A stretch of 41,190 bases of DNA from an uncultured Candidatus Peribacteria bacterium (GTDB lineage: Bacteria > Patescibacteriota > Gracilibacteria > Absconditabacterales > Absconditicoccaceae): NCBI GenBank assembly GCA_964468245.1, contig CAYXTU010000001.1:1-41190 (forward strand), read 5' to 3'. Below are positions 2,032 through 41,190 of the stretch, in pieces. The first letter of the stretch is position 1; the number at the start of each line of letters is the position of its first letter. The notes under the pieces are model-generated. The model worked only from the letters and a program-made list of their open reading frames with translations, did no database searches and was not told where the DNA came from. The translations under genes and the position numbers were made by a program.

Positions 2032-3972
2032 ATGCAGTTAGCTAATGTCAAAATCTCAAATCTCTTGAGTTTTCCCTATCAACCTGATTTTTCTAAGGTC
2101 GAAGGAGTGACTTTTTATAATAGAGAACATATGGATGTGCATATTTTGATTGGGCCAAATGGCGCTGGTAAAAGCTGATTTCTTTCTCTTATTAAGCAGT
2201 TTTTTACTATTGGGCTTATGGGTGATTATGTTTATGATAAACATTATATATCTTCGCTTTCACAAAACGATCTTACAAAAACTATCGTACATTTTCCTCA
2301 TCAGCTTACATCACTTCATCCTCATTTTTCTACTCCTACCTTACCTTCTCATTTGTCTGTACAACTTATTTTAACTGCTCATGATTATGATAATCTCCAA
2401 TATATTGTCAAACATCGTGATATTATCAATATGATTATCAAAAAATATAGTACGCTTGATATTGTATATCCTTATTTTTCTCATGAAGATATTTATAATT
2501 TTCCAAGTTTGTTGACTCTAGATTCTAGGTTTGATTTTTTGACTAATCAGGTAATTATTGATGAAAAAAATCTTTCATCTCAACAGCAGTTTGTTGTGTT
2601 GTATTTGAAAACTCTTGAACTCGTACAGATATGTATTGATATTTACAATGAGTTTGAAAGAAGTGGGAAAGCATTGCCACTTGTTCCTTTAAAAAATAGT
2701 ATCGCATTTATTGGTATGAATAGAACGCTTACTCATGTACCTCAATCGTTGGATCCACATACTTGGAATACGTACATTGGGAGTAAAGCTGTGCAAAATC
2801 ATTCTCAACATGTTGGATATTATCTCTGTATAAAAAAAATCCGAAATATTATTTCTGATCATTTTAGTTTGAAAATGACAAAAAAAAATATTGCAAATTA
2901 TCCTGAGAGATTGGCCGCTTCTGAATTTTATACTAGTTTGGTATATATTATCAAAAAATATATTAACAAAACACTTGTAATTAATTATATCGATGGTTTT
3001 TTGACTTTGGTTTTGGTTGATTATTTTGGAAACGAGATTGCATTTGCCGAGTTAAGTGATGGCGAGCAATCCTTACTTTCTATGATTTTTACGATATATG
3101 GATATGACCTCAAGGAATGACTTGCTTTCGTTGATGAGCCAGAAATTCATTTTCATCCACAGATGCAGAGAAGTTTTGCCAAAATGATAGAAAAAATTAA
3201 TCAGAATATAGAAACACAATTTATCGTGTCTACCTACTCTCCTCTTTTTATCAACGAATCGAATATCAAAAACGTATATAGATTTGCTAAAATAAATGGA
3301 AGTACTATAATCAAAACACCTTTGTTTTCTTTGTCTGCTGATGAGTCTACATTGGTACATTTATTGAAGTTTGAAAACTTGTCTAAGATATTTTTTGTCA
3401 ACAAAATTATTATGGTAGAAGGAGAAACTGATGCATATTTTTTTGATTTTTATCTCAAATATCTTCATACCTTGCCAGAACGAAAAGATAAAGTGACTGA
3501 TTATGAAATTATCAATATCAATGGAAAATGAAGTTATAAAGTGCGAAGTAAGTTTCTTTCTAGATTTGGTTTGCAATCATTTTTTGTTGGAGATTGGGAT
3601 AATGTCGTAGACTATGGGTTTATGACACAGGATGATCTTGTATATTATTATAAACAAGCTAAAATCCATGCAAATAAACTCAAAGCAATTCCTAGGTCTC
3701 ATAGTCGTTATAATAAACTGGTGGATACTATAAAAAATCTTTTCCCCAAACAATATAGATATCTGATTGCTAAGATACAAGATTTGTACCCAAAACATGT
3801 ATTTATTCTCAAAAAGTGAGATATAGAAACCTATCTTGGTATGAAAGAAAAATGACTTGAAGATACGATCAAATTTTGTCATCATCAATTTGCTCGTCGA
3901 AATCAAGACAAAGCATTTGCTAGTGCTAGACAAGAGTTTTGAGAAATATTTGCGGTAATTTTTGGTAAATAG
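2032..3972 (+). CDS. OLD-family / PARIS-like fusion: ABC-type ATPase plus TOPRIM nuclease (646 aa)
   Basis: Pieces 2032.., 2218..3120, 3163..3531 and 3541..3819 share one frame and are joined by TGA only; true stop is TAG 3970-3972. Motifs: Walker A ILIGPNGAGKS-G, signature-like LSDGEQS, Walker B LAFVDEPEIHFHP, TOPRIM Glu IIMVEGETDAYFF, DxD FFVGDWDN, then ILKK-G-DIETYLG. Confidence 0.8.
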
Positions 3973-5494: not shown

Positions 5495-6676
5495 CTAGTT
5501 TATTTTTTTTGGGAGGTCGGGAGCATCGAATCTTTTGATGAAAAAGGGGAGTAGAAGAAGAATTATTCCAAAGAAGAAAAAGCTTATTTTGATTCCTAAT
5601 TTTTTGTTGAGATAATCTGCTGCTATCATAATGAGAAATAAGACAATATTGGTCACAATACCATATGATACTGATCCATATTCTTTTCTATGATCTTCTC
5701 AGATATGGAAGAAATACCTTCATTCCAAAAGATTGACGGCGATACCAAAAAATATTCCAATAAAAAATCAGAAAAATTTTAAGGTAATAAAGTAATCGTA
5801 TTTGTTTATTATGTGTGGGAAATATATCGTTGAAAGTCAAAAAATAATGGTAAATATTATTGCTATAAGTCTTCTTCTCCTTTTGAAGAATGCAGAAATA
5901 ATGTTTCCAAAAATAGCTCAACCAAATGATATCACAATTACAATGATGGATGCTTTTGGTGTTCTTTGGAAAATATCCATTCCCATTTCTAGCATTTTTT
6001 GTCAAATAGCAGTCGAGATTGCTCGCAGTGTTGCGATAGGAATCAAAAGTCGGATATATTTTTTTGTGATACTGATAATGTTTGGTATGATTTTTTTGAT
6101 GGTTTCTTTGAGTGGCTTAGTTTCAAAATGTTGATCATAATTCATGAGCATTGTGAGCATGCTTGATAGAACAAGAAGTCATATAATAGCTTGGAAACCG
6201 TTTGTTCATCGTTTGGCAAAGATACTAAATCATAGATAACTTCATAACAATATTCCTACCAAAATTGCAATATTTATTATCCCATTTATTTTTGCTTCTC
6301 CATTGTTTGATTTTTGTATTTCACAACTGAGAATGATGGATTTGGTGACTAATCGCAGACTATAGGCAAATCCTATTCAACTTACTAAGAGGACAAATAC
6401 TCGAAATGGGTAGTATCCAAGAGCATTTCCTATAGCTAAACACAGTATTGCTGTCAGGCTTGAAAAAATAATGATGTTTTTTTTGCGAAATGCATACGCA
6501 AGTGATGATCAAATAAAGTAAGCAAACATCCCTCACAAACTTAGATATCATGCTATTTCCTCTAGACTAATATGTACTTCTTTGAGATAGGATCGGAGAA
6601 AAAACTTGAGCGTAGAAATAAATACACTTCGAAGAAATGTTATGGCTACAAAGAGAATCATATTTTTGTGTTTCAT
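5495..6676 (-). CDS. MFS-type transporter (393 aa)
   Basis: Minus frame from ATG 6676 to TAG 5497..5495 has no TAA/TAG (checked triplet by triplet) and many TGA. Product is hydrophobic throughout (…VISFGGAIFGNIISAFF…, …FFGFFIGIFFGIAVNLLEG…) with a basic loop G.SLAYAFRKKN resembling MFS motif A. Confidence 0.6.
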
Positions 6677-6690
6677 AAATATTTATAATT

Positions 6691-6741
6691 GATAAATGCT
6701 ACCCGATAAAATGATAAAATGATAAAACGATGAAATGATGA
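6691..6741. repeat. GATAAAATGATAAA-type short tandem repeats
   Basis: Sequence is gataaatgctacccgataaaatgataaaatgataaaacgatgaaatgatgag. Same family as 16107-16160, 21952-22110 and 41133-41190. Sits 15 nt upstream of the MFS start codon. Confidence 0.8.
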
Positions 6742-10417: not shown

Positions 10418-12229
10418 ATGGCTATCAGAAATATTGCTATTATTGCCCATGTCGATCATGGAAAAACCAGTCTTGTCGATAAGTTGCTTACGCAGTCGGG
10501 GACTATGAAAATGGCAGAAGATCAGAATCTTATTATGGATAGTAATGATCAGGAAAGAGAAAGAGGAATCACCATCTATTCCAAAAATACTTCCGTCAAT
10601 TACAAAGGTGATGTTATCAATATTATAGACACTCCGTGACATGCGGACTTTGGAAGTGAAGTGGAAAGGGTATTGAAAATGGTCGATAGCGTGTTATTGC
10701 TCGTTGATGCCTACGAATGACCTATGCCACAGACTAAATTTGTTTTGAAAAAATCTCTAGAACTTGGACTCAAACCGATTGTCGTGATCAACAAAATAGA
10801 CAAAGAAACTGCAAGGCCAACCTGGGTAATCAATCAGTTGTTTGATTTGTTTTTTTCGCTTGGTGCAACTGATGATCAAGCAGATTTTCCTATTATTTAC
10901 TGTAGCGCGAAAGGGGGATATGCGTTTGATGATATGAAGGATTTTGAAGAAGCAAAAGAACATGGAGATATCTTTCCGATTTTTGATTTGATAGAAAAAT
11001 ATGTCCAACCAGCAGCAGATTATTCTGATAAACCTTTTCGTATGCAGGTTGTTAACCTCGGATATGATGATTTCATCGGAAGACTTGGTATTGGAAGAGT
11101 ATATGAATGAACAGCAAAACCATGACAAGAAGTAGTGATTTTTGATAATGAAGGAGTCAAAAGAAAAGGAAAAATTACCAAAATATTTACGACGCTTGGA
11201 ATCTCTAGAGTAGAGACACAGCAGGCGCAATGCGGTGATATCGTGACTATTGCTGGTATCCCAAATATCTATGTAGGAGAAACCGTTGGTGTAGAATGAT
11301 GCGAAGCGTTTGCACCGATCAAGGTCGATGCACCGACATTGACGATGGATTTTTTGGTCAATGATTCGCCATTTGCTGGCAAAGAATGAAAGCTCGTAAC
11401 GTCAAAAAATATCCAAGAAAGATTGCATAAAGAACTCCAAACAAATGTCTGATTGGAAATTAATTTTGAAAAATGAGGAAATAGATTCGCGGTTTCTGGT
11501 AGAGGAGAACTCCACTTGTCCGTGCTTATCGAAACAATGAGAAGAGAGTGATTTGAGTTGCAAGTGTCTGCGCCACAAGTAATTTTCAAAGAAGAGAATG
11601 GTCACAAAACTGAGCCGATAGAACAAGTTATCATCAATGTCGATGAAAAACTTTCGGGAACGATTATCGATATGATCGCGAGAAAAAAATGACAAATGGT
11701 AAATATGTTTACGGTAAATGGAACGTCTACACTAGAATTTGAAGTGCCGACAAGAGGATTGCTCTGATTTAGATGACAGTTTGTCTTGGTGACGAAGGGG
11801 GAGTGAATTATCTACAGTTCGTTTTCTCATTACGCACCGTATAAGGGTGATATTCCCAAGAGAACAACTGGTTCTATGATTAGTCAAGAAAATGGAAAAT
11901 GTATGAAATATAGTATCCGAAAGTTGCAAGAAAGAGGGAAAATTTTCATTCTTCCGCAAGCTGCGATGTACGAATGAATGATTGTCTGAGAGTCTGCAAA
12001 GCCAGGTGATATGACGGTTAATTTGACTAAGAATAAACAACAGACCAATGTCAGAGAAAGTGGAAATGATGAGTCAATGCGATTGGAACCTATCATTCCG
12101 TTGACACTAGAAGACTCGTTGGCATATATTAGTACTGACGAATATGTAGAAATTACTCCAAAAAATATCAGACTCAGAAAAGTATTTCTTACGGATTCTG
12201 AGAGGAAGAAGAATTGAGTGAAAAAATAG
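10418..12229 (+). CDS. typA: translational GTPase TypA/BipA (603 aa)
   Basis: Motifs: [27 protein letters not shown] (TGA 10637-10639), NKIDK. I translated the whole central part (…[20 protein letters not shown]…). I count 16 in-frame TGA. Ends …KKNGVKK then TAG 12227-12229. Confidence 0.95.
12146..12229 (+). repeat. direct repeat, left copy (functional last 28 codons of typA)
   Basis: 79/84 nt identical to 13341-13424. All 5 differences are synonymous (ATT/ATC, ACG/ACT, AAA/AAG twice, TAG/TAA). Confidence 0.9.
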
Positions 12230-13340
12230 AAGACTACGTCTGTAATTACACCTACGGTCGTAATTTTTCTGTTGATTTTTTTGCAAAATTACTTCTTTTC
12301 TTTATACTTTATATTGTCTGTCGGGTTCGTCCCATTTTGCCGGACCAGTCTGATCTGGCACAGACATCAAAACGCTTCGCAATTTCTGCGGAGTTTTTTG
12401 ATTATAGCGAAAGTATATTTTTATTATTGAGTGAAAGTAGTGATTTCATTTGTGTTATTGCTGTTTGATTGAGTATTTGAAGTCTTTCTGATTGGGGTGT
12501 TTTCATTTTGATAAATTGTGCATTCATACTTTCTATATTTGCTAAAATAATTAATTGTTCAATAGTTGCTCCATCTCTTATATTTCATTTTCCATTTTTA
12601 TTTTCATCTCTTCGTTGTTTTGCTGTTTTGCCAAAAAGTGCTTTGTTGAGTATATCTGCCTCATCGGCGTAGATTACATTAATTTCTGTTGGTGAAAGCT
12701 CTTTTGGAATCAAATATTCTTTGATTGAATCTGTATGTATCTTGTAATTTACTTTTGTCAAAAATCTTTTTACATTCCAATCTAATGAGTTTGTTTCTTC
12801 TTGTTTGAGTCTTTGAAACTCTTTGATAAAATATAACCTAAACTCTACTGATATTCGATTGGCAAATTCTAATGCAATATCTTTGTGAGCAAATGTTCCT
12901 CATCCATATTTTCATGATTTACTGATAATGCCTATAGCTCCAGTCTTTTCTATCCATCTTTGGGGAGATAGAACAAAAGAATTGAAGCCTGCTTCGTTTT
13001 TAAACTGGTCGAATTCGACCAGTTTAAAAGTTGGATTATATAGTTGTTCCCAAAGACCTAAAAATGCTATAGTTTCTTTGTTTCTAAGCCAATTTTTTAC
13101 AACATCAGCTGGTAATAAGGGGTTTTTGTATTTGGCTATATCGGTTAGACTAATATAGTCAGCATCACTATTTTGAATGACTTTGATTTGTGTTCATTTC
13201 ACTTCTAAGATCAGAGATTCTGGCATTTTTTCTTGTTCAAGAAATAAAACTTCATATATGTGAAGTATAATTATTTCTTTCTGTATATCAAGATAATTTT
13301 TGACAAACGCTTTTTATTCTTTATAGAACTATCTTTTGTT
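12230..13340. mobile_element. ~1.1-kb single-gene insertion (KilA-N cassette) bounded by duplicated typA 3' ends
   Basis: Lies between the two 84-bp typA-end copies. Contains only the reverse-oriented KilA-N gene plus a structured GC-richer tail (12335-12400). No recombinase gene. Confidence 0.55.
12402..13226 (-). CDS. KilA-N domain-containing protein (274 aa)
   Basis: ATG 13226 to TAA 12404..12402, frame checked triplet by triplet, 4 in-frame TGA. Sequence ISLTDIAKYKN…VVKNWLRNKETIAFLGLWEQLYNPTFK.VEFDQFKNEAGFNSFVLSPQRWIEKTGAIGIISKSGKYGGGTFAHKDIALEFANRISVEFRLYFIKEFQRLK matches, from memory, the widespread phage-associated KilA-N family. Confidence 0.75.
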
Positions 13341-13424
13341 GTAGAAATCACTCCAAAAAATATCAGACTCAGAAAAGTATTTCTTACTGATTCTGAGAGG
13401 AAGAAGAATTGAGTGAAGAAGTAA
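13341..13424 (+). pseudogene. orphaned copy of the typA 3' end (28 codons incl. stop), probably the ancestral end
   Basis: Encodes the same peptide [27 protein letters not shown] as 12146-12229 and is followed directly by a strong terminator. No typA sequence lies upstream of 13341. Confidence 0.8.
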
Positions 13425-13447
13425 AAAAAGCCCGAAAGGGCTTTTTT
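13423..13447. terminator. bidirectional rho-independent terminator
   Basis: aaaaaa-agccc-gaaa-gggct-tttttt: perfect stem flanked by an A-run and a T-run, between convergent typA (relic) and the 59-aa ORF. Confidence 0.8.
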
Positions 13448-13527
13448 GTGTTAGTGATAATGTCAGAGTCTCGCAAGACGTCCGAAGGATTTCATTGTAG
13501 GCTCTGTTGTAGGTTTGTATATGATGA

Positions 13528-13707
13528 TTACAATAGTCCATTTTTAATAAGATCCAGATTTATTTCTTTCATTAGGTCTTCTTGCTTATCTCTTATAAAT
13601 TTTGAAATTTCATCTGAATGTTTTTTGTTGTTTTCAATGATTTCAATGTTTTTTGGATCGCTGAAAAACTCTGAGACTGATTGAGGTGTTGTTTTCTTTT
13701 CCATCAT
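13528..13707 (-). CDS. small hypothetical protein (59 aa)
   Basis: ATG ATG at 13707, TAA 13530..13528. MMEKKTTPQSVSEFFSDPKNIEIIENNKKHSDEISKFIRDKQEDLMKEINLDLIKNGLL. Starts 25 nt after the third proS-end relic. Confidence 0.45.
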   Translation of the reverse strand: MMEKKTTPQSVSEFFSDPKNIEIIENNKKHSDEISKFIRDKQEDLMKEINLDLIKNGLL

Positions 13708-13732
13708 GTATGGGGGTATATAATAAAATCTT

Positions 13733-13771
13733 TTAGTAACGTAGAAATAATATTTTTTTGCTTAAATTACC
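13733..13771 (-). pseudogene. third, most decayed relic of the proS 3' end
   Basis: Minus strand reads GGT AAT TTA AGC AAA AAA ATA TTA TTT CTA CGT TAC TAA (…SKKILFLRY*). Compare the real proS end …STKRVLFARSY*. It is followed by the same gttactaaaag… downstream sequence and overlaps the GNAT stop codon. Confidence 0.55.
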
Positions 13772-14208
13772 TTTAATTTGTATAAGTACATTAGGTTGTT
13801 TTTATTTTCCTTTCCGTACGGTTCTTTTATTTTTTTTGTTAGTTTAAATCATAATTTTTTGTGGAGATTGTTTGATTCTATGTATTCTGGTCATACTAGG
13901 GCATGAATATCTTTTTTTATTTTTTTGGCTTCATGTATGACTTTTTGATATAACATTTTTCAAATATGTTGTCCTCTATACCTTGGATCTACAACTATAT
14001 CCGTTACATATATCGTATCGTTTTTCCCAATAAAACTAACTATTGCACCGATTAGTTTGGTTTGATCTTTTGCAACAAAAACGAATCAATAATTAATAAA
14101 TGCTGAGTTTTCATATACATTTCCTACATATTTTTCGTTTCGAATTTTTTTTTCAAGGTCTATGATAGCAAAATTGTCTTGTATCTTGGCTTTGCTTATA
14201 GTAATCAT
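13762..14208 (-). CDS. GNAT-family N-acetyltransferase (148 aa)
   Basis: Frame checked; 4 in-frame TGA. Acetyl-CoA motif A reads IVVDPRYRGQHI-G-KMLYQKVIHEAKK. C-terminal part reads LHKKL-G-FKL. Confidence 0.7.
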
Positions 14209-14233
14209 AGAATGTATTGAATAATTAAAACTT

Positions 14234-14283
14234 TTAGTAACTTCTTACAAATAAGACTCTTCTTTCGCTTTGTCTACCAGTAA
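14234..14283 (-). pseudogene. second relic of the proS 3' end
   Basis: Minus strand reads …ACT GGT AGA CAA AGC GAA AGA AGA GTC TTA TTT GTA AGA AGT TAC TAA (TGRQSERRVLFVRSY*). The ~25 nt after its stop match those after the real proS stop. The GNAT ATG follows 25 nt later. Confidence 0.75.
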
Positions 14284-14296
14284 TAATTTAAAAAAT

Positions 14297-14548
14297 TTAA
14301 TGTTGGAAGTCTTTTGGTCTAAATTTATTTAATTCTGCTCGATCTATTTTTCCTCTTTCTAAAATAGCTTCTTTAGCTTCTTCTTTGAGTTCTCTTCGCT
14401 CTTCTCTTTTTTCTTCTGAGCTATAATTAACACAATGAAATTTGGGTATTGTTTTTCCAGAAAGAATATCTTCTACTTCTTGTGCTGCATCTCTATATGT
14501 TTTTGTTGTTTTGTTTTGTATTCCTTCTTCAAAATCTAACTCTTCCAT
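14297..14548 (-). CDS. small acidic hypothetical protein (83 aa)
   Basis: ATG 14548, TAA 14299..14297, no TGA. MEELDFEEGIQNKTTKTYRDAAQEVEDILSGKTIPKFHCVNYSSEEKREERRELKEEAKEAILERGKIDRAELNKFRPKDFQH. Starts 28 nt after the proS stop. Confidence 0.5.
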   Translation of the reverse strand: MEELDFEEGIQNKTTKTYRDAAQEVEDILSGKTIPKFHCVNYSSEEKREERRELKEEAKEAILERGKIDRAELNKFRPKDFQH

Positions 14549-14576
14549 GGTATATATAGTAAATAATTAAAAATTT

Positions 14577-16106
<1,530 letters not shown>

Positions 16107-16160
16107 AATAAACGATGAAATGATAAATGCTCACTGCGTTCACGATAAAATGATAAATAT
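16107..16160. repeat. GATAAAATGATAAATG-type repeats abutting the proS start codon
   Basis: ataaacgatgaaatgataaatgctcactgcgttcacgataaaatgataaatatg, immediately 5' of the proS ATG (16106..16104) in the gene's orientation. Confidence 0.8.
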
Positions 16161-20800: not shown

Positions 20801-21951
20801 GTGGTTCGCGCTAATGCACTTACTTTTGCGTTTGGATCTGTATGTTCATATATCTTCTTTTGGTAGAGATAGAGATCATAAAATTGACTCATAATCTCCA
20901 TATCATCATCGACGATGGTATTTTCTATTTTCACAGCAAATCCCAATGCATTGTCTGATGGTATGATTTCTGCTCGTACCATTTGTGGTAATTTTTCTGG
21001 CTCCATGAGTTTTGGTTCTCCTTCTATCTCTATTTCAAACATATTGAGATTAAATAATCCTCCACGTAATATTTGTTTTACGCTTCCTAATGCTTTTATT
21101 GTTTTTACTTCAACTCCCAATTCTTCTGAAATTTCTTTTTTGACTGTTCATTCAAGCGTGTCTCCTTTTTCTACCTTGCCTCCTGGACAAAGATATTTTT
21201 GAGCTTTGACACTATAATTCATAAAAATCCTTCCATCACGTTTTATGATGCAATCTACGATTTCTACGAATCCGTCTGGAGTCATTTCGTATTGATCGAA
21301 ATTGAAGTTCCATTGATTGTTTATTCTATCTCGAAGAAGTGGAAACTTTATCGTAATCGCTGGATCTTGTCTGTCTTTGTATCCATCGTTGACCTCTGCA
21401 TTGGAAAGTGATGTTGCGCAGCTTGGACACATCCACTGAATATTAAATCACTTGTAGACTAAGTTCTGATTGTACATATTTTGAATTATTCGTATTACAG
21501 ATTCCATAAAATCTAGGTTCATCGTATAATATGCATGATCCATATCTGCCCATCTTCCAATTCGATCTCCGAATGTTCTTCGTTCATCACTAGTATTACT
21601 TACATATTTTCTACATTCTTCTACGAAATTTTCTATACCGATTTTGTTTTCTATATCTTTTTTACCATCGATTCAGAGTTTTTGCTCTACGGCTTTTTCT
21701 ACCGGCAAACCGTGACAATCTCGTCATCGGTCTCTATTTACCTTGTATCATTTCATTGTTTTGTATCTGAGGATAGTATCTTTCATCGATCCAACTAATC
21801 CATGTCCAAAATGAGGTGTCCCTGAAGCAAATGGAGGACCGTCATAGGTGACAGATTGAAATTTTTCTGAACGTTGTTCGAGGGATTTCTCGAAAATTTT
21901 ATTTTCCTTCCAATATGCGTTGAGATCTTGGATGAATTCTTTTTGAGACAT
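17815..21951 (-). CDS. ileS: isoleucyl-tRNA synthetase with three in-frame domain insertions (1378 aa)
   Basis: Eight track ORFs (21748..21951 through 17998..18417) are all in the same frame. Every gap was translated and contains only TGA (about 17 in total). Motifs: GTPHFGHGL (HIGH), RTTTPWTLPSN, YPHCRRCDTPL, DCRFESGSMPF, GLDQTRGRF, KMSKKLKNYPDP. True stop is TAA 17817..17815. Confidence 0.9.
18310..18738 (-). other. second, SixA-like histidine-phosphatase domain inserted in the IleRS anticodon-binding region (~140 aa)
   Basis: Lies between …FFETYANVDKW and IDNELDKRILAEL…. TLYFMRHAKANGQ, …LAEEGIQAM…, YASPALRTVQTAE, MLIISHDVN. Confidence 0.6.
19279..19956 (-). other. histidine-phosphatase (PGM/cofactor-dependent mutase fold) domain inserted in IleRS (~225 aa)
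   Basis: Lies between …PIWENTKKPEDIIVAGTLEEIYQ… and MDLHKPYVDTYRF…. NVIIRHGETVYNE (RHG catalytic His), …LNKNGLKQAKIVSKYL…, …IIITPLERSLQT…, and a second His in TIVTITHKDSVILI. Confidence 0.65.
20845..21336 (-). other. Nudix-like domain inserted in the IleRS editing-domain entry (~160 aa)
   Basis: Lies between …DPAITIKFPLL and …ARTTTPWTLPSN. PGGKVEKGDTLE-G-TVKKEISEELGVEV aligns position for position with the MutT Nudix box GGKIEMGETPEQAVVRELQEEVGI, with E to D and R to K substitutions. Confidence 0.65.
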
Positions 21952-22190
21952 GATAAAACGACTAAACGATAAAAGCTCACTATGTTCGCGATAAAATGAT
22001 AAATGCTGCGCGATAAATGCTCACTATGTTCGCGATAAAATGATAAATGCTGCGCGATAAAATGATAAATGCTGCGCGATAAAATGATAAATACCCTTTG
22101 GGCGATAAAATGATGTTTTTTATCGATTTATCTTTTTATCATCCGCGAAAGCGGATTTTTATCATTTGGGTTTCGTAGTTGAATAGTGAA
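21952..22190. repeat. array of ~22-bp tandem repeats (GATAAAATGATAAATGCTGCGC and variants) plus inverted copies, abutting the ileS start codon
   Basis: About 7 head-to-tail units from 21952 to about 22110 (three of them identical). These are followed by ttatcgatttatctttttatcatccgcgaaagcggatttttatcatt, which contains reverse-oriented units and an atccgc-gaaa-gcggat hairpin. Confidence 0.85.
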
Positions 22191-41132: not shown

Positions 41133-41190
41133 AAATGATAAAATGATAAAAGCTACGCGATAAAATGATAAAAGCTACGCGATAAAATGA
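41133..41190. repeat. GATAAAATGATAAAAGCTACGC tandem repeats (run continues past the right edge)
   Basis: At least two perfect 22-bp units plus partial units. Same family as 21952-22110. Confidence 0.85.

Follow-up and report, generated by a model that had tools for sequence, protein, structure and literature searches.

How did a single accessory gene come to lie between two copies of the end of an essential gene, and what kind of recombination put it there? The question is raised by a 41,190-nt stretch of DNA from an uncultured bacterium (GenBank contig CAYXTU010000001.1; the whole of this stretch is referred to as the window), in which the 3′ end of typA, the gene for the translational GTPase BipA/TypA, is repeated further downstream, with a KilA-N domain gene on the opposite strand in between. 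An earlier reading of these letters (the original prediction) had taken the arrangement for an attP-like integration that brought in a typA end from another genome. The explanation that we lean towards, with a little more confidence than doubt, is a homology-driven insertion into a low-GC islet of variable genes, with a gene-end relic left behind; a single crossover of a circular molecule with a typA end on it would be one such event.

The repeat spans 87 nt with 5 mismatches (12145-12231 versus 13340-13426), and in a self-BLAST of the window (E=7e-32) no other dispersed (non-tandem) direct repeat of the 41 kb is as strong. Within it, the last 28 codons of typA (12146-12229) recur as 84 bases at 13341-13424, and both copies encode the same peptide. 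Compared codon by codon, all 5 differences fall at third positions and are synonymous (ATT/ATC, ACG/ACT, AAA/AAG twice and the stop codon TAG/TAA). Because 20% of the possible single-base changes in the repeat are synonymous (32% of transitions), this outcome is unlikely for a free-running pseudogene; five of five would arise by chance with p ∼0.004-0.02, even if the mutations are split between a constrained and a free copy. The original prediction of a duplicated typA end with synonymous-only differences was thus borne out, and its view that both copies read as functional coding sequence is supported. The possibility that the distal copy belongs to a longer fragment of a typA paralogue was ruled out, since typA homology begins abruptly at 13340. 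No conserved open reading frame (ORF) runs into the distal copy from upstream. A small ORF ending in that copy was considered and rejected: the frame is open in the window and in one related locus (L082; related loci are given L numbers where they must be told apart), but the peptides are unrelated and the L082 frame has no start codon.

Relatives without the insert were sought at 42 metagenome loci and in several further look-ups of typA relatives. Their common layout is the typA stop codon, 0-25 nt, a terminator hairpin (AAAAAAGCCCGGAAGGGCTTTTTT), one to four variable small genes on the minus strand, and proS. About 40 related Absconditabacterales contigs show this empty site and none has KilA-N there, as the original prediction had proposed to check. 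Because these relatives have the typA stop followed by the same terminator, the KilA-N unit is best read as an insertion into a variable islet. In the window, the distal copy directly adjoins this terminator, and the distal copy, the terminator and the next bases align with the native typA ends of relatives, which marks the distal copy and its terminator as the probable original end of typA. The islet is bounded by the convergent core genes typA and proS, and the KilA-N cassette is its first gene. Its gene content differs in almost every relative, and the GC content of 12230-14576 is 0.26-0.33 versus 0.37-0.43 in typA and proS. No integrase, excisionase or other recombinase is present in the insert or the islet, whose ORFs are KilA-N, a GNAT acetyltransferase and small unknowns; the predicted lack of a recombinase in the insert was upheld by Pfam, NCBIfam, PHROGs and predicted structure. 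A search for further copies of the 1.1-kb insert, also proposed earlier, returned none in the window.

The same junction of KilA-N promoter and typA tail was found in the window, in L082/L083 and in L131-133, which are independent assemblies of diverged lineages. Since the junction is present in at least three diverged lineages, the sequences indicate that the arrangement is old and common to several of them. Protein identities of L082 and L083 to the window are 94% for typA and 82% for KilA-N; for L131-133, KilA-N is 99% identical in protein and only 93% in nucleotides. In all three lineages that have a distal copy, its frame, length, stop codon and peptide are preserved. Between the window and L131, the distal copies differ at 12 synonymous and 3 non-synonymous positions (proportions of synonymous and non-synonymous differences, pS and pN, of 0.70 and 0.045), a divergence that is indistinguishable from comparisons of functional with functional sequence.

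The closest match of every distal copy is the proximal copy from the same genome. The two copies in the window differ at 5 nt, distal copies differ between genomes at 13-19 nt, and in L131 the last 30 nt of both tail copies are identical. This pattern indicates that the tail copies are under concerted evolution. With concerted evolution or later allelic exchange, the 5 differences are not a measure of the divergence between donor and recipient at the time of insertion. The original prediction had used them in this way, as the mark of a typA end from another genome; that inference is not supported, as each of the window copies has the other for its nearest relative.

The cassette core moves between lineages independently of typA. 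Between the window and L130, typA is 84% identical in nucleotides (pS 0.53), whereas the core of the cassette (12280-13257) is 96-99% identical to L130 and L131 (KilA-N pS 0.18), and identity falls back to ∼85% in the flanks of this segment. By this distribution of identity, the core was exchanged recently between lineages through homologous replacement. Occurrence of the cassette is patchy: of relatives at equal distances, some have it and others do not. Three Logan contigs of 1.18-1.25 kb were also recovered, at least one of which (L131) has a 30-nt end overlap inside the tail.

Comparable relics were found elsewhere. In two other relatives, L087 and L118, fragments of the typA tail lie ∼0.7-1.1 kb downstream of typA. 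The L087 fragment lies beyond an alpha/beta-hydrolase-like gene and shows 5 synonymous and 2 non-synonymous differences; that of L118 lies beyond a 189-aa unknown gene and is decayed, with a 2-nt indel. Relative to the typA stop codon, the fragments extend from −85 to −7 in the window and L082 (where homology continues through the stop codon), from −104 to −37 in L087 and from −73 to −9 in L118. In the islet of the window, the last ∼15 codons of proS, with the stop codon and ∼20 nt, are duplicated on the far side of an 83-aa ORF (14212-14279 versus 14554-14622). Identity between the two is 81-89%; 2 of the differences are synonymous and 5 non-synonymous, and the outer copy is a second gene-end relic in the same islet, now decaying. 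A Patescibacteria metagenome-assembled genome (MAG; L010, JAHJSK010000062.1) has a 48-nt fragment of its resident fusA (EF-G, RSLTQGRGTFTMEFDH) downstream of a KilA-N homologue that is flanked by repeated hairpins (TTTCCGGTGGTCGGACCACCGGAAAGCTT); the fragment (3811-3858 versus 6088-6135) shows 5-6 synonymous and no non-synonymous differences. Independent events in L087, L118, the proS end of the window and L010 share the anatomy of gene, cargo and gene-end fragment. The differing boundaries, the unrelated cargo and the proS relic argue for homology-driven or illegitimate recombination and not for site-specific recombination.

Most likely, then, host homologous recombination made the insertion, with no dedicated insertion enzyme. 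As the probable route, we infer that circular DNA carrying a typA end and the cassette recombined with the 3′ end of typA by a single crossover. One-ended break repair copied from a circular or foreign template with a typA end would be equivalent. By either route, typA would remain whole but gain a new end, the old 84-bp end would be shifted with its terminator to the far side of the insert, and no recombinase encoded by the element would take part. Such an event explains why typA is intact, why the relic runs straight into the native terminator, why boundaries vary among independent events and why there is no recombinase. Events of this kind would cluster at gene ends because only short 3′-terminal duplications are stable and leave an essential gene intact. 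In E. coli, a single crossover of a circular molecule with part of a locus gives a locus duplication of 109-950 bp that flanks the insert; the product of true homology-facilitated illegitimate recombination is a deletion (PMC3240628). The relic would have been kept coding-like by continued recombination with functional typA ends, through gene conversion with the proximal copy 1.2 kb away or through allelic exchange with strains that lack the insert and have a typA end and terminator homologous to the relic.

The cargo belongs to a widespread family. The predicted reverse-oriented KilA-N gene was confirmed with Pfam PF04383 (61.1 bits, cutoff 23.8; residues 14-142 aligned with positions 7-106 of the 107 in the profile), and its product matches the PADLOC PDC-S22 hidden Markov model over its full length (E=1.6e-123; residues 4-269 aligned with positions 4-270 of 281). 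It also matches PHROG 2657, annotated as “transcriptional regulator”. Structural matches in BFVD are phage KilA-N proteins. An AlphaFold (AF2) model (predicted local distance difference test, pLDDT, 80) has an N-terminal KilA-N fold followed by long helices, and the PDB entry that it matches best is DdrC, a DNA-binding protein. Pfam, NCBIfam, PHROGs and predicted structure showed no nuclease or recombinase domain or fold, the C-terminal half included. Homologues at ∼60-70% identity number more than 8000 and come from nearly all bacterial phyla and some archaea, a spread that indicates rampant horizontal transfer of the family. Some of them lie within type I restriction-modification operons, adjoining HsdM, RhuM and HsdR. 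By these matches the gene is a candidate anti-phage defence gene, a role assigned both here and across the family by annotation; in the literature searched, a single paper names PDC-S22, as an annotation, and no experimental report of phage protection by it was found.

Distant homologues (L048 3638-5988, the whole of contig L022, L025, L040 and L055) stand in single-gene arrays with direct repeats of 90-260 bp as separators, which look like cassette arrays. Examples are a Saccharibacteria MAG with the order repeat, AntA, repeat, KilA-N, repeat, and a Gracilibacteria contig with five copies of the repeat.

Inside the KilA-N ORF lies a perfect 32-nt palindrome (TTTTAAACTGGTCGAA followed by TTCGACCAGTTTAAAA), and it is present in 80 of the 82 homologues examined (L001-L082), which come from nearly all phyla. 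When all are fitted to a model of 16 pairs, 89% of cells are paired, and pairing collapses once the register is slid. Changes on both sides of a pair number 75, against 21±3 in shuffles, and none of 500 shuffles reached 75. The palindrome covaries through reverse-complement codon pairs (CTG..CAG, CCC..GGG, CAG..CTG, AAT..ATT, CGT..ACG), with amino acids changing jointly (L..Q, P..G, Q..L, K..F/N..I). On the sense strand, G·T wobbles outnumber A·C mismatches by 46 to 16. No Rfam family covers the palindrome and no report of it was found in the literature. It could be an mRNA hairpin, a DNA cruciform, a recombination site or the result of quasi-palindrome correction. Unreported, covarying, intragenic and directly testable, this palindrome of the PDC-S22 family is a more surprising lead than the insertion itself. 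In a Parcubacteria MAG (L019 5001-6147, CAWHBO010000003.1), two N-terminal fragments of other alleles precede a full KilA-N gene, and the first (aa 1-72) stops exactly at its own palindrome (TTATGGCGAA followed by TTCGCCATAA). Fragments ending at the palindrome were rejected as a general pattern, since L019 is the sole case among 80 loci.

Besides the KilA-N gene and its promoter-like site, the insert holds a structured spacer and a terminator. The spacer (12225-12405) folds much better than shuffled sequence (z=−6.2), and the structure and second terminator site that had been predicted there were both found. A hairpin directly after the typA stop codon is linked to the cassette: it is present in L082, L130 and L131 and not in empty-site relatives. 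The segment that follows (12281-12400) comprises a promoter-like sequence (TTGCAA-16-TATACT), a branched structure of ∼85 nt (TGTCTGT...ACAGACA) and a bidirectional terminator (12374-12394 with a T-run) that it shares with KilA-N. This segment may be a small-RNA gene or a structured 3′ element. It is 99% identical in L130 and L131, above the conservation of the adjacent coding sequence, and is missing from L082, which retains the terminator alone. It converges on a gene that may be toxic or serve in defence, an arrangement reminiscent of type I toxin-antitoxin pairs. Rfam gave only sub-threshold chance hits in the spacer, and no family. A tRNA or tmRNA fragment was rejected because ARAGORN found none in the spacer, and a repeated element of the miniature inverted-repeat transposable type because the 125-bp structured segment (12262-12386) has no second copy in the window or in ∼130 fetched loci.

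Several observations weigh against the crossover account of the insertion. In one locus (L130), typA is followed by the spacer and KilA-N without a distal copy, and another (L001) has typA, a DEAD-box helicase and KilA-N, again with no copy of the typA tail; given these two, the relic could have arisen after the cassette arrived. Pure gene conversion predicts some non-synonymous differences in the window relic and there are none (p ∼0.01), so that an extra step of allelic exchange, or selection on the relic, is needed. The L087 fragment is without the last 10 codons of typA and requires a second event. Recombination has made a mosaic of typA, which leaves lineage relationships uncertain; relative to the window, typA shows a star-like spread of identities (84-88%), which does not resolve the cassette-bearing lineages as monophyletic or otherwise. 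Neither a circular intermediate nor an excision junction was seen, and the 1.2-kb Logan contigs fit a repeat-collapsed assembly loop equally well. The main rival builds on L130 and L001. In it, the cassette already stood beside typA, as in L130, and DNA from a relative that lacks the insert took the place of what lay to its right; this donor segment would have begun by chance in the typA tail of the donor and run through the terminator and islet genes towards proS, with a homology anchor on the proS side and an illegitimate joint just upstream of the KilA-N promoter, and the relic would be foreign and not native. Cassette homology between the window and these two loci indeed stops at ∼13305 (∼15 nt upstream of the KilA-N promoter-like site and ∼35 nt before the relic), the genes right of the relic differ among the window, L082 and L001, and transformable bacteria are known to recombine through one-sided homology and an illegitimate joint (PMC3240628). 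However, the start of the donor segment would have to fall in the final ∼100 nt of typA three times independently (window/L082, L087 and L118) and a fourth time in the proS tail. The outcome described experimentally is insertion plus deletion, not duplication (PMC3240628), and the relic and terminator resemble the local native end. We consider this replacement unlikely, if well worth keeping in view.

Selection offers another account of the synonymous-only differences: the insertion would be reversible and recombinase-free, excising through the 84-bp repeats and re-entering by homologous recombination, and typA would periodically use the distal or a hybrid end, so that both copies stay under coding selection. 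A relic that has kept its frame, length, stop codon and encoded peptide in three lineages would fit, as would the patchy, recently exchanged cassette and the 1.2-kb contigs with overlapping ends; but no excision product was seen, concerted evolution covers most of the signal without selection, and the other relics (L118 and the proS tail) decay normally, which leaves the proposal doubtful. A broader reading, just as doubtful, would join it to the palindrome in a recombinase-free mobile cassette. A 1.2-kb unit (tail, small-RNA-like element, KilA-N/PDC-S22 gene and promoter) would excise as a loop by way of the 84-bp repeats, pass as DNA among competent cells of the Candidate Phyla Radiation (CPR) and re-enter relatives at typA by host homologous recombination, with the typA-tail repeat as its “att site”. 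Every cycle would refresh both tail copies with functional sequence, and the pan-phylum palindrome, as an RNA hairpin or recombination site kept by coupled amino-acid changes, would be a cis-acting nucleic-acid element needed for regulation or spread of the family. Three further explanations are disfavoured by specific tests. The attP-like integration of the original prediction stands in part, in that there is an insertion relative to an empty site and the repeats include the end of typA, which is itself restored; genes of the KilA-N kind are typically cargo of phages or islands. As the remnant or satellite of an integrase-type element, mobilised in trans or deprived of its integrase, the insert is nevertheless very unlikely: it is a single gene without a recombinase, and independent events at the typA tail do not have their repeat boundaries in common. 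Neither a shared core nor inverted-repeat arms are present, proS has the same anatomy with another small ORF, and the arrangement is old and shared. Spread like that of a homing endonuclease, with KilA-N cutting insert-free typA tails and the cassette copied in with a recoded, cleavage-resistant typA end, would be suggested by the anatomy of fungal mitochondrial atp6/cob C-terminal duplications with endonuclease ORFs between (PMC6279837) and by flanking direct repeats at 12 of 54 testable KilA-N loci versus 6 of 99 shifted control positions. Given a protein whose best structural match binds DNA and that has no nuclease fold, the same anatomy with non-KilA-N cargo, and many homologues in type I restriction-modification operons or cassette arrays without gene-end duplication, it is highly improbable. 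Finally, mixed-strain metagenome assemblies do break at the typA-tail repeat, for example as the 1.2-kb Logan contigs, and could have joined cassette-bearing and empty-site strains into a chimera. This is scarcely credible with the same junction in independent assemblies from different studies and no shared k-mer by which the KilA-N promoter could be joined to the typA tail in error.

Among known systems, Campbell-type single-crossover integration (e.g., of a suicide plasmid, or the E. coli events in PMC3240628) has the direct duplication of a homologous segment flanking the insert, a duplication ending exactly at the insert boundaries, a gene left intact if the fragment includes its 3′ end, and no need for more than host recombination. 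The present case differs in being a natural event in an uncultured CPR bacterium, with a homology of only 84 bp and an inferred circular donor, and in a product that has lasted through divergence at the level of speciation while its repeats evolved in concert. Integrative elements with a replacement gene end in attP (for tRNA, tmRNA and some protein genes) share the attL/attR-like gene-end repeats, the reconstituted target gene and relatives with an empty site; the window has no integrase, a single-gene 1.1-kb insert, unconserved boundaries and an ancient rather than recently mobile arrangement. In anatomy, the closest natural analogue is the atp6/cob duplications of Endoconidiophora resinifera (PMC6279837), with the same order of gene, inserted ORF(s) and partial C-terminal copy; those ORFs are free-standing homing endonucleases, whereas the present cargo is without an endonuclease domain (LAGLIDADG, GIY-YIG, HNH or other), the genome is bacterial and the relic is coding-like. 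An integron gene cassette would have an attC site at the 3′ end of its ORF and stand in an array next to intI; the window has no intI and no repeated attC-like unit (12262-12386 being single), and the distant homologues L048 and L022 do occupy repeat-separated arrays. The window most probably holds a recombinase-free, homology-driven insertion of a single gene, with a gene-end relic, in a recombination-rich CPR lineage.

Features of the typA-proS region and related elements in the window (positions are those of the whole stretch).
Feature	Position	Strand	Remarks
typA (translational GTPase BipA/TypA)	10418-12229	+	603 aa, code-25 translation; the duplicated 3′ end belongs to this gene
typA tail, proximal functional copy	12145-12231	+	last 28 codons, stop, 2 nt
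Hairpin directly after typA stop	12225-12273	+	linked to the cassette
Candidate small-RNA gene or structured 3′ element	12281-12400	+	promoter-like site, branched structure, terminator
KilA-N domain gene	12402-13226	−	274 aa; Pfam PF04383, PADLOC PDC-S22, PHROG 2657
Perfect 32-nt palindrome	12998-13029		inside KilA-N ORF, encodes FKLVEFDQFK
KilA-N promoter-like site	13264-13291	−	TTGATA-16-TATACT
typA tail, distal relic	13340-13426	+	in frame, stop retained
Probable original typA intrinsic terminator	13424-13447	+	strong bidirectional hairpin; same element directly after typA in empty-site relatives
59-aa ORF	13528-13707	−	islet
GNAT acetyltransferase	13762-14208	−	islet
proS-tail relic	14212-14279	−	islet
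83-aa ORF	14297-14548	−	islet
proS (prolyl-tRNA synthetase)	14577-16106	−	conserved right border of the islet
Tandem motif ATTTATCATTTTATCGCG(C/A)AGC	16104-16158, 21949-22114, 41137-41190, 6687-6719		

The window uses genetic code 25 (TGA=Gly), and typA and most long genes are interrupted by TGA codons under table 11; in typA, in-frame TGA codons are read as Gly (e.g., DTP-G-HAD). The TypA protein is 84-94% identical to Absconditabacterales TypA proteins, and the best-matching proteins carry the annotation Candidatus Absconditabacterales; the genome is of the Absconditabacterales (SR1-type, code 25). Compared with L082 and L130, typA is a mosaic produced by recombination across lineages, with 73-97% identity to L082 in windows of 100-150 nt. 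Several TypA proteins in the database have identical N-terminal halves and different C-terminal halves. Note also that a tandem motif, listed last in the table, occurs in 2-6 copies immediately ahead of proS, ileS and a further two genes on the minus strand, and may be a common promoter or an array of regulator-binding sites.

On the favoured reading, this case shows streamlined CPR bacteria gaining single accessory genes beside essential genes without mobile-element machinery. The end of the essential gene would arrive with the insert and the old end would remain as a relic, a course to which the empty sites and several independent parallels point. Synonymous-only divergence between gene-end repeats need not date an insertion or identify its donor; because concerted evolution and allelic exchange give the same signal, caution is needed when att sites are inferred from duplicated gene ends. 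The cargo acquired in this way belongs to a very widely transferred candidate defence family.

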